From: a phage
Reading direction: 5' to 3' (one strand)
DNA: 40,362 nucleotides
Sequence record: OZ418233.1
The position numbers were made by a program, and so were the translations under genes. Shown here one piece after another: positions 29,191-36,525 of the stretch. The notes below the pieces were generated by a model that saw only the letters and a program-made list of their open reading frames with translations, made no database searches and had not been told where the DNA came from. Numbering within the stretch: position 1 is the stretch's first letter; each line of letters starts with the position of its first letter.

Positions 29191-30438
29191 GTGCTTACCG
29201 ATACAAAATTAAAAAACCTCAAGCCGCAGGACAAACTGTACAAGGTCTCCGATCGTGACGGGCTGTATGTAGCTGTACTTACGTCAGGCACGGTCTCGTT
29301 TCGCTATGACTACCGTATCAACGGTCGCCGCGAAACACTGGTAATCGGGCAGTATGGGCGTGACGGTATCAGCCTGGCAGAAGCGCGGGAAGAACTGATT
29401 GCTGCAAAGAAGCTGCTTAAAGCAGGCCAGTCACCGGCTGCGGCTAAACGTGACGGTATCAAAAAGATTCGTGGTGCTGAGACGTTTGCGGTACATACCG
29501 ACAGTTATATGAAACACGTCATCCTGGCTGACAGTACCCGCGCAATGAAGCAGGCGGTGATCGACCGTGACATACTTCCGGTTCTTGGCAACAAAATGAT
29601 GGCTGAAATTACCACATCGATGGTTCGTGATTTGTGTGACCGGATTGTCGAACGCGGTGGTCGGGCAACAGCAGTACAGGCCAGGGAGATCATCAGCAGC
29701 GTATACCGTCACGCCAATGATCGTGGTCATGGTTTGTTTAATCCTGCGGCTGACATTAAACCTTCGTCTATCGCCATATTTAAACCACGAGAGCGAACAC
29801 TGACACCAGAAGAAATTGGCCTGTTCTTCCGCACGCTGGATGCCATTGGTGCTATGGGCACTATGAAAATGGCTTTAAAGCTGGTGCTTATCACTATGGT
29901 TCGTAAAGGCGAATTCACCAACGCAACGTGGGATGAAATAGATTTTAAAAAATGGACATGGACAATTCCTTCAGACCGCATGAAGGGAAGCCGGGCGCAC
30001 GTTATTTACCTGCCTAAACAGGCTCAGGATATATTGGTCGGGTTGCAGATGTGCGCTGGTGGAAGTGAATATCTGGTTCCTGGTCGTTACAATTTCCGGA
30101 AGCCATTATCTAATGCCGCGCTGAACTCTCTGATCGACAGAACGGTGAAAATAATAAATGAAGATGGTGAGCATATTCAGGGCTTCACCGTACACGATAT
30201 GCGCCGTACAGCAAGTACGTTGTTGCATGAGGCTGGTTATCCTTCAGACTGGATTGAAAAGGCTCTGGCACATGAGCAGAAAGGTGTGCGCGCCGTATAT
30301 AACAAAGCGGAATACGCCAGACAGCGCGCCTACATGTTGCAGCAGTGGGCCGATATGATTGATTCCTGGATTGACGGGGAGCATACGGATCTGATTCCGT
30401 TCTCCCCGTCGAAGTTTGAGAAGTGGATGGCGGGATAA
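29191..30438 (+). CDS. int: tyrosine integrase (P4-like, N-terminal arm-binding domain)
   Basis: GTG start; N-terminus LTDTKLKNLKPQDKLYKVSDRDGLYVAV typical of P4-family integrases; C-terminal region has R...H-x-x-R...Y-type catalytic features (HDMRRTASTLL, AVYNKAEY). Confidence 0.85.
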   Translation: MLTDTKLKNLKPQDKLYKVSDRDGLYVAVLTSGTVSFRYDYRINGRRETLVIGQYGRDGISLAEAREELIAAKKLLKAGQSPAAAKRDGIKKIRGAETFAVHTDSYMKHVILADSTRAMKQAVIDRDILPVLGNKMMAEITTSMVRDLCDRIVERGGRATAVQAREIISSVYRHANDRGHGLFNPAADIKPSSIAIFKPRERTLTPEEIGLFFRTLDAIGAMGTMKMALKLVLITMVRKGEFTNATWDEIDFKKWTWTIPSDRMKGSRAHVIYLPKQAQDILVGLQMCAGGSEYLVPGRYNFRKPLSNAALNSLIDRTVKIINEDGEHIQGFTVHDMRRTASTLLHEAGYPSDWIEKALAHEQKGVRAVYNKAEYARQRAYMLQQWADMIDSWIDGEHTDLIPFSPSKFEKWMAG

Positions 30439-30444
30439 TAACGT

Positions 30445-30639
30445 TTAATAGTTCTGCTGATTTTCTTCCATCTCGGCTTCTGCTGCCAGTGATTCAATTT
30501 TGTTTGCGAATATTGCTGACAGCGTTGCAAATTCAGCATCAGTGACAGCGGGAATTGGAACAAACCTGATCCCGCTGTGTGCAAGCATGTTTGCAGTTTC
30601 AAGGCATTTCCTTAAATCTGCTGGTGATGCCCTGTTCAT
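30445..30639 (-). CDS. hypothetical small protein (64 aa)
   Basis: ATG overlaps the stop of the upstream methyltransferase gene; last gene of the leftward operon, convergent with int. Confidence 0.35.
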   Translation of the reverse strand: MNRASPADLRKCLETANMLAHSGIRFVPIPAVTDAEFATLSAIFANKIESLAAEAEMEENQQNY

Positions 30640-31298
30640 GCTGCACGCTCCCGCCCCTGGTTGTCTGTTGGTGACAGCGGAGCATTGCTGAATGCATTTG
30701 TTAATCCGCCAATATCCAACGCGTATCCAGGGTGTAGTTGCACTGCCGGGTCTTCGCACTGATTACCCCAAACATCGAAGCCATGAGACGTCTGGCGGGC
30801 GAACAGTTCAATGCGAGAAACATCGCCTAACAATTGCACAAGTTTTTCACGAACGACATCTGGTTTTCTTGAATGCTCAAGCCGCGGTGCGGTAAATGAC
30901 TGAACGATCCCTGCATTAATGCGTGGAGGTAGTTTTCCCTTTACTGCAAACAGGCAATCTTCACTATTGGCGCGAGTCATGTGTCCCATACCCATAACCA
31001 GTTTATCTGGTTGTCGACTACCACATTTTATCCACGTGAAGCCCTTCATGGTCATCAGACGGAATCCCCAGGCTTCAACAACTTTTAGTGCTTCGAGTGG
31101 TTGTGTTGGCACCCACCACATGGCCAACAGACAGTTTTCATCGGCCAAATCCCACACAGGAAGGCGGCAGATATCCAGCACACTCATAACCGGATATTTA
31201 AAACCGGCACCGCGATTACCATCTGCGGCTTTGTCCCGGTATACCCAGGGTGGATCTGCATAGATTAGTGTGTATTTCTTAGTCATAAACCACCCCAC
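30636..31298 (-). CDS. MT-A70-family N6-adenine DNA methyltransferase (orphan)
   Basis: YADPPW motif at the N-terminus (catalytic DPPW); no adjacent restriction endonuclease gene. Confidence 0.75.
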   Translation of the reverse strand: MGWFMTKKYTLIYADPPWVYRDKAADGNRGAGFKYPVMSVLDICRLPVWDLADENCLLAMWWVPTQPLEALKVVEAWGFRLMTMKGFTWIKCGSRQPDKLVMGMGHMTRANSEDCLFAVKGKLPPRINAGIVQSFTAPRLEHSRKPDVVREKLVQLLGDVSRIELFARQTSHGFDVWGNQCEDPAVQLHPGYALDIGGLTNAFSNAPLSPTDNQGRERAA

Positions 31299-31578
31299 AA
31301 CATCCTATGCCGCTATAGTCGCCACGGCGAAGGCCGTTACCTTTTGTGATACATTGGTCCCTGCGAACCGCGATCCTTGCACGTTCAACATCACCAGAAG
31401 CAACATCCATACACTGAAGCCAAAGGTGAGCGGCAATGCGGAACTGCCCTTTTTTCTCTCTTTCAATCGCGCGTTTTTCGATCTCTATCGCCGCAGGAGT
31501 AACGGCGACAATCTTTGACGGACTGCGCATTGAAACCTTATTCATGTGATATTTTTCAAGTCGGCTTAACTTTCTCAC
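31279..31578 (-). CDS. hypothetical protein (88-99 aa)
   Basis: Minus-strand ORF in the early-left operon; start uncertain (M1 or M12). Confidence 0.35.
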   Translation of the reverse strand: MRKLSRLEKYHMNKVSMRSPSKIVAVTPAAIEIEKRAIEREKKGQFRIAAHLWLQCMDVASGDVERARIAVRRDQCITKGNGLRRGDYSGIGCCGVVYD

Positions 31579-31687
31579 TTAATCCAACCCTCTCTGAAAA
31601 TTAATGCCAGCAGATAAAGCCATGCTGAAACAGAGGCCAGGAATAAGTACCATCCTGACCATTTGCTCCAGTGCCTTAGCAGCGCAC

Positions 31688-31936
31688 TCATGCAGCGTTG
31701 CTCACGGGACGATATACACGTTGCTGAACAGGAGGTTTTTTACCCTGGTACTCTGCCGGGCTTGCTGCCTGACGTTCATCAAGCCAACGCTCAACTTCGT
31801 CACGGTTCCATGCGCAGCGTTTGTCAGTGATATACCAGCGTTTAGGAAATTCCCCTGCGCGCTCCATACGGTCGATAGTGCTCCATGACAGTGGCACCAC
31901 CGCTAGGAGTTCCTTCTTACCTAATGCACCTTTCAT
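31688..31936 (-). CDS. AlpA-family DNA-binding protein (excisionase/regulator candidate)
   Basis: 82 aa, LAVVPLSWSTIDRMERAGEFPKRWYITDKRCAWNRDEVERW fits the AlpA/Xis-type HTH pattern. Confidence 0.65.
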   Translation of the reverse strand: MKGALGKKELLAVVPLSWSTIDRMERAGEFPKRWYITDKRCAWNRDEVERWLDERQAASPAEYQGKKPPVQQRVYRPVSNAA

Positions 31937-31985: not shown

Positions 31986-32927
31986 TTACATAGATGTTTC
32001 GTTTAATTCTTCCCGACGAACGCTGTAAACGTCGGTGGCTTTTGCCAGCAGTTCGTCATCATCTGAAAGTTTTTGTGCAATGTATTTGTAAGCCTTATCC
32101 AGTTCGGAGACAGTGCTGTAATTCATCGCTGCGCTGGTAAAGGCCATCAGCATTTCTTCTGGATCACGGCTATCCGCTTTACGAGTTTGCTCATCAGGCT
32201 TTTTCACTGGTTTAGCGTTGATCAGACTGTTCATTCCCGCAGCAGTGGTCGTTTGCGGAGTAATGTCTCGCTCAACGCGCGGTGCCGTTTCCTGTAATTC
32301 GTCTGGTGTGTAGACGCCCATGATTACGTCAGGACAGTGCAAGCGAGACCAGCGTTTTGTCGCAAGGTATGCGAGTTGTTGTTTCGGATCACTGGCCCAA
32401 AGTGTGGAGTTTCTTACCTGTGCTTGAGACAGCATTAACTCAAGCACTCGAGGTTGATCCTCGCCCTTCATGGTTGCCCATACGCGAACACCGCAGCCTT
32501 CTTCGTCTTTTAGAGTCCAGCCTGGTGCGATATATGGATTGCCGTTTTTGGATTTTTTCTCAACAAACTTACCGATCACGCGTTCCCACGGCCCGAACCA
32601 CTCGTAGTTGATGCGATCTTTTGTTGGCGACATCGTTGAGATAACTGCGTTTACTAATTGGGCTTCATAACCTAGCGTGCCGTTCACAACATGGGTTTTC
32701 TGAGCCACGGCAAACGGGTTCATTCCCCACTGCGCAGCCTGCATTGCCACGGCCATGCAATCAGCTGGTTTCCCGGCGAGGTGCGCCGGTACCGTTACGC
32801 GGCTTTGCGCCATTACCTCGGCGAATTTCATCAGTTGGTTCAAGCCGTCTGGGCTGAAAATAGTTGCAGCAGTTCCAGCGATTGCTGTGTCTACTGGTGC
32901 GTTGATGTTTGCGATGTCGTTGCTCAT
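31986..32927 (-). CDS. recT: RecT-family single-strand annealing recombinase
   Basis: About 313 aa from ATG 32927 (ATGA overlap with upstream exonuclease stop, RBS AGGAT); paired with an upstream exonuclease gene as in RecE/RecT-type modules. Confidence 0.7.
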   Translation of the reverse strand: MSNDIANINAPVDTAIAGTAATIFSPDGLNQLMKFAEVMAQSRVTVPAHLAGKPADCMAVAMQAAQWGMNPFAVAQKTHVVNGTLGYEAQLVNAVISTMSPTKDRINYEWFGPWERVIGKFVEKKSKNGNPYIAPGWTLKDEEGCGVRVWATMKGEDQPRVLELMLSQAQVRNSTLWASDPKQQLAYLATKRWSRLHCPDVIMGVYTPDELQETAPRVERDITPQTTTAAGMNSLINAKPVKKPDEQTRKADSRDPEEMLMAFTSAAMNYSTVSELDKAYKYIAQKLSDDDELLAKATDVYSVRREELNETSM

Positions 32928-33745
32928 ATGTACATATCCTGTTTGCGTGCCCACTCAGGGCGTTTAATGATTTCCACACCGCCCCATTCATCATTTATGC
33001 GGCATTCGTGATAGGTATTCAGATCCCGGCGGAACAGAGCGTGCCCGGCATCGACATCCGGCGCATCCAGCTCGAACACGCGTACCGGATACCGACCACA
33101 ATCAATGCTTTCGCTCACGGCAAGAAAGAAAAAACCATGCGGCTGACCAGTAACCCTCATTGCGCCTTCGCGGTACATTGCGTCCTGCACGTGGTAGCGG
33201 AATTCCTCGATGTGGCGTGCAAAACGGTCCATATCTGCAACCTTTTTCACGTCGACGATCACGTTGTGCTCGTTCAGCCATTTGTCTGGACGAATGCGGC
33301 ACAACTCACCAGTCTCTTCATCATTCCAGTACATTGATGCTTCGCAGTAACCAGGTGCTTCCAGCATCCAGCGTGCCGCCGGGTGAGCCATTGCGCTATC
33401 ACGCATCAGCTCCAGTTTCCGCCACTGCTCGGCATCAAGTACCGTAATCCCCATATCCGCTACATCACGAAGAAATGCTTCTTCGTCAGCTTTACCTTGT
33501 TTCGTCCGACGATCGAACTTCGGTGAAACAATGAAGCGTTTGTCGAATTCTCCAGGCTCCAGAAGCAGACAGTGCAATGCGGTTCCAATATCCAGTGCAG
33601 ACTTTTTCTCTTCGTCTTCTGGTGCTGCCTGGACCCATTTAAGAAGCGCCGGATTCTTGGCAACCATGTCCAGTTGCGACTTACTCACGCCGTCACCGGC
33701 GTGGTAGTCTTCGTTGCTGATGTCGAAATAAATTCCCGGTTTCAT
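32924..33745 (-). CDS. PD-(D/E)XK-type exonuclease (RecE C-terminal-domain/YqaJ-like)
   Basis: 273 aa immediately upstream of and coupled to recT; acidic/lysine catalytic-like residues (…IVDVKKV…); call rests mainly on gene context. Confidence 0.6.
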   Translation of the reverse strand: MKPGIYFDISNEDYHAGDGVSKSQLDMVAKNPALLKWVQAAPEDEEKKSALDIGTALHCLLLEPGEFDKRFIVSPKFDRRTKQGKADEEAFLRDVADMGITVLDAEQWRKLELMRDSAMAHPAARWMLEAPGYCEASMYWNDEETGELCRIRPDKWLNEHNVIVDVKKVADMDRFARHIEEFRYHVQDAMYREGAMRVTGQPHGFFFLAVSESIDCGRYPVRVFELDAPDVDAGHALFRRDLNTYHECRINDEWGGVEIIKRPEWARKQDMYI

Positions 33746-34215: not shown

Positions 34216-34230
34216 TTACCGTTGAGGTAA
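34216..34230. promoter_or_regulatory. operator-like motif TTACC-GTTGA-GGTAA
   Basis: Perfect palindrome at the head of the leftward early operon. Confidence 0.55.
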
Positions 34231-34277
34231 TAATTATGCGTATCTGGTTTGATGTCAATAGATATGAGTTAAAAAAA

Positions 34278-34302: not shown

Positions 34303-34328
34303 AATAAAAAAGCCGCCATAAGGCGGCT
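34303..34328 (-). terminator. intrinsic terminator after the repressor gene (minus strand)
   Basis: On the minus strand AGCCGCC-TTAT-GGCGGCT hairpin followed by TTTTTTATT. Confidence 0.7.
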
Positions 34329-34349
34329 TACTTACTGAAAAATATGATT

Positions 34350-35685: not shown

Positions 35686-36525
35686 ATGAGCAGACATGCA
35701 ACAGATTGGGCCTGGGAGACAGATCCAGGTAGCTCGTCATTAAAGCTCATACTGCTCTCGATGGCTGACAGAGCCGATGAATATAACCTCTGCTACCCCA
35801 GCATAGAACGCCTCGTTAAAGACACTTGCCTGAATAAAAAAACCGTGCAGGCCGGGCTTATATCGCTCATGAAAATGGGGCTTATTTCAGATACCGGAGA
35901 GAGAAAGGGAGCGACAAAAAGAGTGCGGGTTTTCTCTCTTAATATAACCAAAAACGGGAACATTAAAGGCAACCGGGAGGGGGGCAATGAACCCGAAAAC
36001 GGTAATGTTACCGAAAACGGGAATATACCCAAAAACGGGATGTTGAATGATCCCAAAAACGGGATGTTGAATGATCCCAAAAACGGGATGTTGAATGATC
36101 CCAAAAACGGGATCCAGAACCAGTCATATAACCAGTCATTTAACCAAGAGAGGGAGAGCAGGACAAAAAACGGGGATTCTGTGCCTCATGACCCTGGCGC
36201 AAACAACGCCGTGATGAATAACTTTGTTCCTCCTGGTGGGCCAGGGCAATTAGGCAAATTTGTCATGCATGAACAATGGCAACCATCAGATGACTTTCTT
36301 CGGAAAAGCTCATTGCAGGGGATCTACCTGGACAGTCTGCCAACGGCACAGGAACTTGCAGAGTTCAGAATTTACTGGATGGCTGAGGGTAAGGCATACC
36401 ATCAGGCACAGTGGGAGCAGAAGCTGGCAAGGCGGCTGCAGATTAGCAGACAGAAGCAATCAACATTACCTGATAACAACGTTCCGCACTGGAACAGCCC
36501 TGAAGCATGGGAGGATTTCTTGTGA
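35686..36525 (+). CDS. replication initiator (lambda O-like, N-terminal HTH) containing origin iterons
   Basis: RBS GGAG; N-terminal HTH-type region (…SSSLKLILLSMADRADEYNLCYPSIERLVKDT…); central coding region made of direct DNA repeats (translated NGMLNDPK x3); followed by a P-like gene. Confidence 0.7.
   Translation: MSRHATDWAWETDPGSSSLKLILLSMADRADEYNLCYPSIERLVKDTCLNKKTVQAGLISLMKMGLISDTGERKGATKRVRVFSLNITKNGNIKGNREGGNEPENGNVTENGNIPKNGMLNDPKNGMLNDPKNGMLNDPKNGIQNQSYNQSFNQERESRTKNGDSVPHDPGANNAVMNNFVPPGGPGQLGKFVMHEQWQPSDDFLRKSSLQGIYLDSLPTAQELAEFRIYWMAEGKAYHQAQWEQKLARRLQISRQKQSTLPDNNVPHWNSPEAWEDFL
36028..36113. repeat. iteron array (3.5 copies of a 24-bp direct repeat CCCAAAAACGGGATGTTGAATGAT), putative origin
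   Basis: Direct repeats at 36028, 36052, 36076 and partial at 36100; additional degenerate AAAACGG(G/T)AA units at about 35949, 35993 and 36011; in lambda the ori iterons lie inside the O gene. Confidence 0.7.

Follow-up and report, generated by a model that had tools for sequence, protein, structure and literature searches.

Shiga toxin (Stx) phages carry the closest studied relative of the gene described here. This gene lies on OZ418233.1, a phage sequence of 40,362 nucleotides (the window, meaning the whole stretch of DNA that was analyzed), and is predicted to encode an MT-A70 family adenine methyltransferase. The relative is gp5 (M.EcoPA8orf6770P) of the Stx2a prophage phiPA8, an MT-A70 gene that raises spontaneous induction and virulence (Gong, Chakraborty & Koudelka 2023; PMC10810198). 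The effect depends on the motif DPPW, and a DPPW-to-APPA mutant loses function (PMC10810198). The enzyme binds the product of the upstream gene gp6 (PNB-2) as a 1:1 complex (PMC10810198). PNB-2 is described as a winged-helix protein, and the C-terminal ~27 residues typical of the methylase in Shiga toxin-producing E. coli (STEC) are proposed to hold it (PMC10810198). The pair has a separate stationary-phase promoter (PMC10810198). M.EcoGV of E. coli O104:H4 is highly similar to M.EcoPA8orf6770P and, in PMC10810198 and Forde et al. 2019 (PMC6602927), is reported to methylate GATC in vivo when overproduced. The name "Dam homolog" given to M.EcoGV (PMC6602927) is a functional label and not a statement of ancestry.

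We hold with middling confidence that the window methylase is an autonomous orphan class-beta enzyme. It would be expressed as part of the leftward early operon, following induction or infection, and would act mainly on DNA, probably at GATC. A regulatory or recombination-related role is more likely than an anti-restriction role. What the sequence shows directly is the family and motif, the orphan status, how the genes are arranged, the homology to the Stx enzyme, and that PNB-2 is lacking. From the comparisons below we infer the timing of expression, DNA as the substrate, the GATC specificity, and the biological role.

The window is a temperate phage of E. coli of the phiV10/epsilon15-like type (Uetakevirus). 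Positions 30400-31600 share 98.6-98.9% identity with phiV10 and TL-2011b. Of the window's second half, ~62% can be aligned to phiV10, at 96.6% identity. The longest open reading frame (ORF) of the methylase spans 30636..31298 on the minus strand and would encode 220 residues from a GTG start. The original prediction gave the gene this extent. The ORF is present, but the ATG at 31286 (MTKKYTLIYADPPW, 216 residues) is most likely the start, a correction of 12 nt. It is favored over the GTG at 31298 because GGGGTGG precedes it and because phiV10p33, the RefSeq models, and the N termini of the homologues agree with it. The predicted coding sequence (CDS) is therefore 30636..31286 (minus strand), the orthologue of phiV10 gp33.

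The protein matches the whole Pfam MT-A70 profile (PF05063; positions 1-172 of 172; E=6e-22; 78.8 bits, cut-off 23.9). It also matches the PADLOC type II methyltransferase model MTase_II (E=6e-77) and PHROG 359, "DNA methyltransferase" (E=5e-120). Its sequence matches in the PDB are Tetrahymena MTA1 (E=4e-13) and human METTL3 (E=4e-6). Catalytic motif IV, DPPW, was read from the sequence at residues 11-14 (31245..31256, minus strand). It aligns with the DPPW of MTA1 and is nearly invariant in an alignment of 30 sequences (A3). In that alignment 46 columns are invariant across homologues of 61-84% identity, and the catalytic residues are conserved. The motif order is the permuted class-beta order, with DPPW near the N-terminal end of the domain. 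Foldseek returned METTL3 (E=1e-10, template modeling score 0.58-0.64) and MTA1 as top folds for an AlphaFold2 (AF2) model whose mean predicted local distance difference test score (pLDDT) is only 61.7. PF05063 was the sole Pfam report for the protein. PF02086 (D12) gave no match, and the same search did detect a true D12 enzyme in a relative (L118). The gene is thus predicted to encode an S-adenosylmethionine (SAM)-dependent N6-adenine methyltransferase of the MT-A70/class-beta fold. This bears out the family and the DPPW motif that had been assigned to it, given the full-length PF05063 match, PADLOC, PHROG, and the position of DPPW.

The gene is already known and annotated and is an ordinary phage gene. 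It is the same gene as phiV10 gp33 (PhiV10p33, YP_512288) and identical RefSeq entries in E. coli prophages (98-100% identity). The methylase is 98% identical to phiV10p33, and its nucleotide sequence is 100% identical in E. coli 118UI. phiV10, also a Uetakevirus, shares the neighboring PerC-like, DUF1382, int, and RecT/exonuclease genes. The allele is present at at least 95% identity in 538 of 5426 complete E. coli genomes (~10%). Among the full-length matches listed, all were annotated "MT-A70 family methyltransferase" beside "PerC family transcriptional regulator." The wider methylase family comprises ~12,000 representative clusters at E<=1e-3.

The methylase and PNB-2 pair could be located in Stx phage P13803 as ORF07 and ORF08. 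It was recognized by the exact phiPA8 gp7/gp6 terminator and by a sequence that nearly matches the mutagenic primer given in the paper. BLASTP aligns residues 1-187 of the window methylase to ORF07 at 83% identity, and the similarity ends there. Both proteins have the same DPPW context, the same type of variable loop (class A, below), and an AGI[VI]QSF segment. The loci are also alike. A DUF1382 gene, 50% identical to that of the window, lies downstream of the Stx phage methylase, and both genes are at the int-proximal prophage end. The last 29 residues of the window methylase are unrelated to those of the Stx enzyme, so the STEC-type tail proposed to hold PNB-2 is not present. The overlapping upstream gene in the window belongs to the PerC family and not to the winged-helix PNB-2 type. 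A terminator lies upstream of the Stx phage pair, whereas the window has continuous coding sequence there.

This resemblance suggests another reading, which we consider unlikely. The methylase would be the catalytic subunit of a partner-directed 16S rRNA methyltransferase. The overlapping PerC-like protein would replace PNB-2, host ribosomes would be modified, and induction or translation would be tuned. The 83% core identity and the class-A segments are common to an enzyme of reported rRNA activity (PMC10810198). The layout is also that of the Stx phage, in that a small gene overlaps the start of the methylase, DUF1382 follows it, and the locus is beside int. The nearest structural relatives, METTL3 and MTA1, act as heteromers. 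Against a 16S rRNA enzyme, a PNB-2 homologue was sought and none was found anywhere in the window. The PerC-like protein is unrelated to PNB-2 (no BLASTP match; hhalign probability 0.5%). The published rRNA claim comes from an assay of SAM consumption in which neither the site nor the methylated base was mapped, and the DNA in the comparison of RNA with DNA came from a dam+ strain (PMC10810198).

More distant described systems differ further from the window methylase. METTL3-METTL14 (mRNA m6A) and the ciliate MTA1/AMT1 complex (DNA 6mA at ApT) have the catalytic fold and DPPW in common with it. Identity is only ~20-25%, and the phage protein is a bare catalytic domain of 216 residues. It lacks zinc fingers and a paralogous inactive partner, and accessory DNA-binding subunits are not known for it, unlike the METTL3 and MTA1 systems. 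Dam-type methylases of phages (T4 Dam, P1 Dam, and M.EcoVT2Dam of Stx phages; D12 class, PF02086) are orphan and phage-borne alike and possibly make the same product (G-m6A-TC). They belong to another family; the window protein has the permuted class-beta motif order and lacks the PF02086 match. The nin region of lambdoid phages tends to carry Dam-type methylases. M.EcoGII, a larger enzyme of the N6_N4_Mtase family, is also comparable. It is an orphan class-beta N6-adenine methylase encoded by a prophage, and it acts on several kinds of nucleic acid (PMC7544214). The window protein differs in matching MT-A70 alone in Pfam and shows no sign of non-specific activity here. M.EcoGIX was considered as a relative and rejected. 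According to the literature it is a plasmid-borne, single-strand-specific enzyme and is unrelated.

Alignment A3 contains two sequence classes across otherwise similar methylases. They co-vary at residues 86-100 of a variable loop (residues 86-104, IKCGSRQPDKLVMGMGHMT; 30975..31031, minus strand) and in residues 124-130, which read AGIVQSF in the window (30897-30917, minus strand). We take these as putative recognition segments. Class A is the minority and comprises only the window, phiV10, the Stx phage, and two sequences from two other genera (L083 and L084). Class B is the majority and includes a Salmonella homologue (P0007) that has the C-terminal tail of the window methylase. The two classes and this mixture of tail and class suggest recombination within the methylase gene and possibly two specificities. 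Because the class-A segments are common to the window and the Stx enzyme, the same specificity is expected of both.

The C-terminal tail comprises residues 187-216 (GYALDIGGLTNAFSNAPLSPTDNQGRERAA; 30639..30728, minus strand) and is unrelated to the Stx phage tail, as BLASTP similarity stops at 187. It is conserved in Salmonella P0007 and Enterobacter P0072 and has low pLDDT in the AF2 model. The long tail was considered as a mark of an overlapping PerC gene. This was rejected, as the Salmonella and Enterobacter tail-bearers have DUF1317 or PDDEXK_5 between PerC and the methylase. Methylases adjacent to PerC in other genera carry short unrelated tails, which also speaks against a pairing of tail and PerC.

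The methylase is an orphan. No restriction nuclease and no PADLOC defense protein was found among the six flanking ORFs or the nine ORFs of the regulatory/replication region (33.7-39.5 kb). There is no cognate nuclease among the PerC-like, DUF1382, 38-residue peptide, AlpA-like, RecT, RecE-like, and integrase genes, and the methylase is therefore classed as an orphan. The absence of a neighboring endonuclease gene, as originally predicted, holds for the neighboring ORFs scanned. The whole window was also searched for other copies of motif IV, as [DNS]PP[YFWH] in stop-to-stop frames of at least 80 codons. Two other matches were found, both in spurious antisense frames, and the methylase has the only genuine N6/N4 motif IV.

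The gene lies in a tightly packed leftward array. From a promoter candidate, the order is a 104-residue ORF, RecE-like, RecT, AlpA-like, the 38-residue peptide, PerC-like, methylase, and DUF1382. The promoter candidate is sigma-70-like (TTGACA-17-AATTAT; 34230..34258, minus strand) and comes from a consensus scan only. It lies just downstream of a terminator-like hairpin (34310..34329) that is 3' of the repressor gene. No minus-strand terminator-like site was found between 34230 and 30445. The GC content of the operon matches that of the rest of the phage. The last five leftward ORFs are linked through overlaps of 4-8 nt (ATGA, GTGA, ATGACTAA, and ATGA). The original prediction placed the gene in an early-left operon and had it expressed with RecT and the exonuclease. 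The shared array agrees with this placement, while co-expression would follow from the arrangement only.

The RecE C-terminal-type (PD-(D/E)XK) exonuclease is encoded at 32924..33745 (minus strand; NCBIfam NF007259 region 606-873, E=9e-93; Pfam DUF3799). The RecT single-strand annealing protein is encoded at 31986..32954 (minus strand; Pfam PF03837, E=1e-44). RecE-like and RecT (31986-33745) are two ORFs with a 31-nt overlap in the window, while phiV10 RefSeq has one fused RecE-RecT CDS of 1761 nt (PhiV10p37). The difference is a frameshift in one of the two or a difference in annotation. An AlpA-family excisionase/regulator-like protein follows at 31688..31936 (minus strand; Pfam PF05930; PHROG 66, "excisionase and transcriptional regulator"). 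The 38-residue peptide is a predicted membrane peptide (31575..31691, minus strand) by translation and phiV10 annotation. It is equivalent to phiV10p35 and overlaps each neighbor by 4 nt.

The PerC-family small protein is encoded at 31279..31578 (minus strand; Pfam PerC 30.1 bits against a cut-off of 22.6; PHROG 868 E=1e-54). It has 99 residues from a GTG start, and 88 are annotated in phiV10. The N-terminal 11 residues are conserved in homologues of 99 residues. The end of the gene and the start of the methylase share 8 nt (ATGACTAA). On the other side of the methylase, the DUF1382 protein has 64 residues (30445..30639, minus strand; Pfam PF07131, E=6e-30), and its start and the methylase stop overlap (ATGA). 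A P4-type tyrosine integrase (29191..30438, plus strand; Pfam Arm-DNA-bind_3, Phage_int_M, and Phage_integrase) faces the leftward array in convergent orientation.

We compared 40 species-level genome loci that contain the methylase. The gene occupies several slots. It was found in the int-proximal early-left operon, in the nin region (NinB-MTase-NinD or beside RusA), directly after replication genes, or alone after the lysis cassette. Its neighbors in relatives include a D12 Dam-class methylase, C5 cytosine methylases, DndB, NinB, RusA, and replication initiators. No PerC-like gene is present in 27 of the 40 loci, and no recurrent partner was found there. In many slots, NinB-MTase-NinD and the position alone after the lysis genes among them, neither a PerC nor a PNB-2 gene accompanies the methylase. 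These DNA-metabolism neighbors and the lack of a recurrent partner favor an autonomous, DNA-directed enzyme. In the remaining 13 loci, a PerC-domain ORF precedes the methylase on its strand at a distance of 0-1.6 kb; no PerC-domain ORF lies at any other place in the loci.

The PerC-domain gene occurs in two operon contexts. The first is the epsilon15-like early-left operon, where the pairing amounts to simple synteny. Genes are often inserted between PerC and the methylase in this lineage, which makes the slot an insertion hot spot of epsilon15-like prophages. The inserts are PDDEXK_5 (L133:1998-2525, L086:2417-2995, and L091), HNH_3 with NUMOD4 (L089:2513-3004), a DndB-like gene (L090:1937-3004), DUF1317 (L131 and L133), and phiTE_015 (L134). 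The PDDEXK_5 and HNH genes were considered as cognate nucleases and rejected. Their families (PDDEXK_5; HNH_3 with NUMOD4) and sporadic presence fit mobile homing-type endonucleases better.

The second context comprises prophages of Buttiauxella, Dryocola, Lonsdalea, and Acerihabitans. The PerC-domain protein is ~30% identical to that of the window, and four of six loci score above the Pfam threshold. In five of these six, PerC reaches or overlaps the start of the methylase. In the five loci with flanks scanned, O/P-like replication genes precede the pair and RusA follows it, in some with a LexA-like gene between. Three Dryocola/Buttiauxella proteins (L099:2567-3010, L101:2546-3004, and L103:2492-3004) have ~80 extra N-terminal residues before the PerC-like C-terminal part.

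Natural variants of the pair also exist. P0003 is an in-frame fusion of PerC to the methylase, P0001 has half of PerC fused to the methylase, and in P0221 the methylase is deleted and PerC is joined to DUF1382. The in-frame fusion is explained by loss of one T from the TTT before the methylase ATG (junction window 31279-31286). Support for each variant is limited to a single contig or a very small number, and assembly errors may account for them. The fusions P0003 and P0001 were rejected as Rosetta-stone evidence, as they are rare, near-identical variants that a 1-nt or internal deletion explains. There were no fusions to the methylase among 124 PerC-like homologues. The AF2 model of the P0003 fusion contained a confident three-helix bundle for the PerC part, while the junction and the methylase were poorly modeled. 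It was rejected as a stand-in for a complex (predicted template modeling score [pTM] 0.41, linker pLDDT ~30, and no confident contact).

Together, PerC and the methylase suggest a two-gene module that is not obligatory. The association bears on the 16S rRNA enzyme in both directions. It is helped by the PerC-domain gene that lies upstream in 13 of the 40 loci. This gene occurs in two operon contexts that are unrelated, with a direct stop/start overlap in the second. The rare in-frame fusions (P0003) help as well. However, the genes inserted in the epsilon15-like lineage mean that coupling is not required, and most family members have no candidate partner. The model of the natural fusion also has no confident interface. 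A broader idea is that MT-A70 cores are modular and have interchangeable small partners, with the PerC-like protein replacing PNB-2 and directing the methylase to a specific RNA or DNA target. It arises from the PerC-domain gene directly upstream in two unrelated contexts at ~30% PerC identity. It is weakened in that the pairing is not obligatory, insertions are common, and no confident interface is predicted, and we consider it quite improbable. If it is true, it would link the PerC/Pch family, best known as activators of virulence genes in enteropathogenic and enterohemorrhagic E. coli, to nucleic-acid methylation.

The original prediction proposed protection of phage DNA from host restriction, with an epigenetic regulatory role as the alternative. 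As a classical anti-restriction orphan, the enzyme would methylate a short or relaxed motif overlapping host restriction sites and shield progeny DNA in new hosts. The PADLOC type II methyltransferase class is consistent with this. So are relatives in multi-methylase clusters with Dam-class and C5 methylases, which are typical of phage anti-restriction cassettes. A small core without a recognition domain would fit relaxed specificity, and two classes of putative recognition segments would be expected under diversifying specificity. However, the sole class-A specificity reported in PMC10810198 and PMC6602927 is GATC, which host Dam already covers. The purified orthologue was inactive on DNA in vitro (PMC10810198). 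The allele is in ~10% of complete E. coli genomes, and the literature search found no new motif tied to it. We consider an anti-restriction enzyme distinctly unlikely.

The closest studied relative, with 83% core identity and class-A segments, does not support protection from restriction. It is reported as GATC-specific on overproduction in vivo (PMC10810198; PMC6602927), had no detectable activity on dam- DNA in vitro, and preferred 16S rRNA when with PNB-2 (PMC10810198). The regulatory alternative is closer to the published findings for the Stx enzyme, which changed prophage induction with PNB-2. The original prediction also took the lack of a new methylated motif on expression as refutation. 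That result would not separate the readings, because GATC methylation is invisible in a Dam+ host and an RNA enzyme leaves DNA unmarked.

The gene could also be an inert or decaying passenger without function in the window phage. It lies in a variable slot with gene turnover, a methylase-deleted variant exists (P0221), and the orthologue alone is nearly inactive in vitro (PMC10810198). We consider this very improbable. The ORF and DPPW are intact, and the 46 invariant columns hold across the 30 homologues. Identity is at least 95% in 538 genomes. The start and the stop both overlap neighboring genes, and the orthologue has a DPPW-dependent phenotype in vivo (PMC10810198).

Under the favored reading of an autonomous DNA methylase, the protein would be active as a stand-alone enzyme without a separate target-recognition domain. 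It is probably a dimer, by analogy with class-beta enzymes. The gene would be the penultimate gene of the leftward early operon, with the promoter candidate at ~34.25 kb. This position implies that the enzyme would be made after infection or prophage induction and not in the repressed lysogen. The substrate is most likely DNA, with the Dam-like GATC specificity reported for M.EcoGV. A GATC enzyme in Dam+ E. coli would duplicate host methylation, so it would give almost no protection from restriction. It may instead keep fast-replicating, recombining phage DNA fully methylated. Consequences for origin use, for gene expression, or for MutH-directed mismatch repair are conceivable. In recombineering, overproduction of Dam is known to relieve mismatch-repair interference (PMC4770203). 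A speculative benefit is that removal of the hemimethylated GATC signal for MutH would lessen mismatch-repair interference with RecET recombination.

Several points weigh against this reading. Purified M.EcoPA8orf6770P alone was essentially inactive in vitro on dam- and dam-/dcm- DNA and on RNA (PMC10810198). For its complex with PNB-2, RNA was a 13.5-fold better substrate than DNA, and 16S rRNA in 30S subunits was preferred (PMC10810198). The GATC assignment of M.EcoGV is second-hand only, through PMC10810198 and PMC6602927. The AF2 model of the methylase, built on 30 homologues, is of low confidence (mean pLDDT 61.7, pTM 0.59). For phiV10/epsilon15 methylases and phage MT-A70 methylomes, a literature search yielded no relevant experimental work; the phiV10 gene has an annotation. 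GATC is mildly under-represented in the window (observed/expected 0.74), which is uninformative either way.

Palindromes were compared with Markov expectation over the whole window. CTAG (observed/expected 0.20), GGCC (0.59), and AGCT (0.68) are strongly under-represented, and GATC is at 0.74. A putative lambda-O-like origin array lies at 35991-36146, inside a replication-initiator gene with HTH_36 and DnaT domains (ORF 35686..36525, plus strand). It contains the 24-bp iteron CCCAAAAACGGGATGTTGAATGAT (x3.6, 100% identity), with 18-bp degenerate repeats and a 12-bp repeat, AACCAGTCATAT (x2.4), at its flanks. Every 24-bp unit holds one GATC (36049, 36073, 36097, and 36111). These sites carry no weight, because repetition of one unit explains them. 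GATC statistics were accordingly rejected as evidence on the methylase, with the ratio at 0.74 and the tandem iteron as the only cluster.

The allele is present in about one in ten complete E. coli genomes, and a sister allele is present in many Shiga toxin phages. The substrate of the enzyme therefore bears on prophage biology. It also matters for the interpretation of E. coli methylomes. The phiV10-type allele, a natural variant, has the same catalytic core as the Stx enzyme and is without PNB-2.

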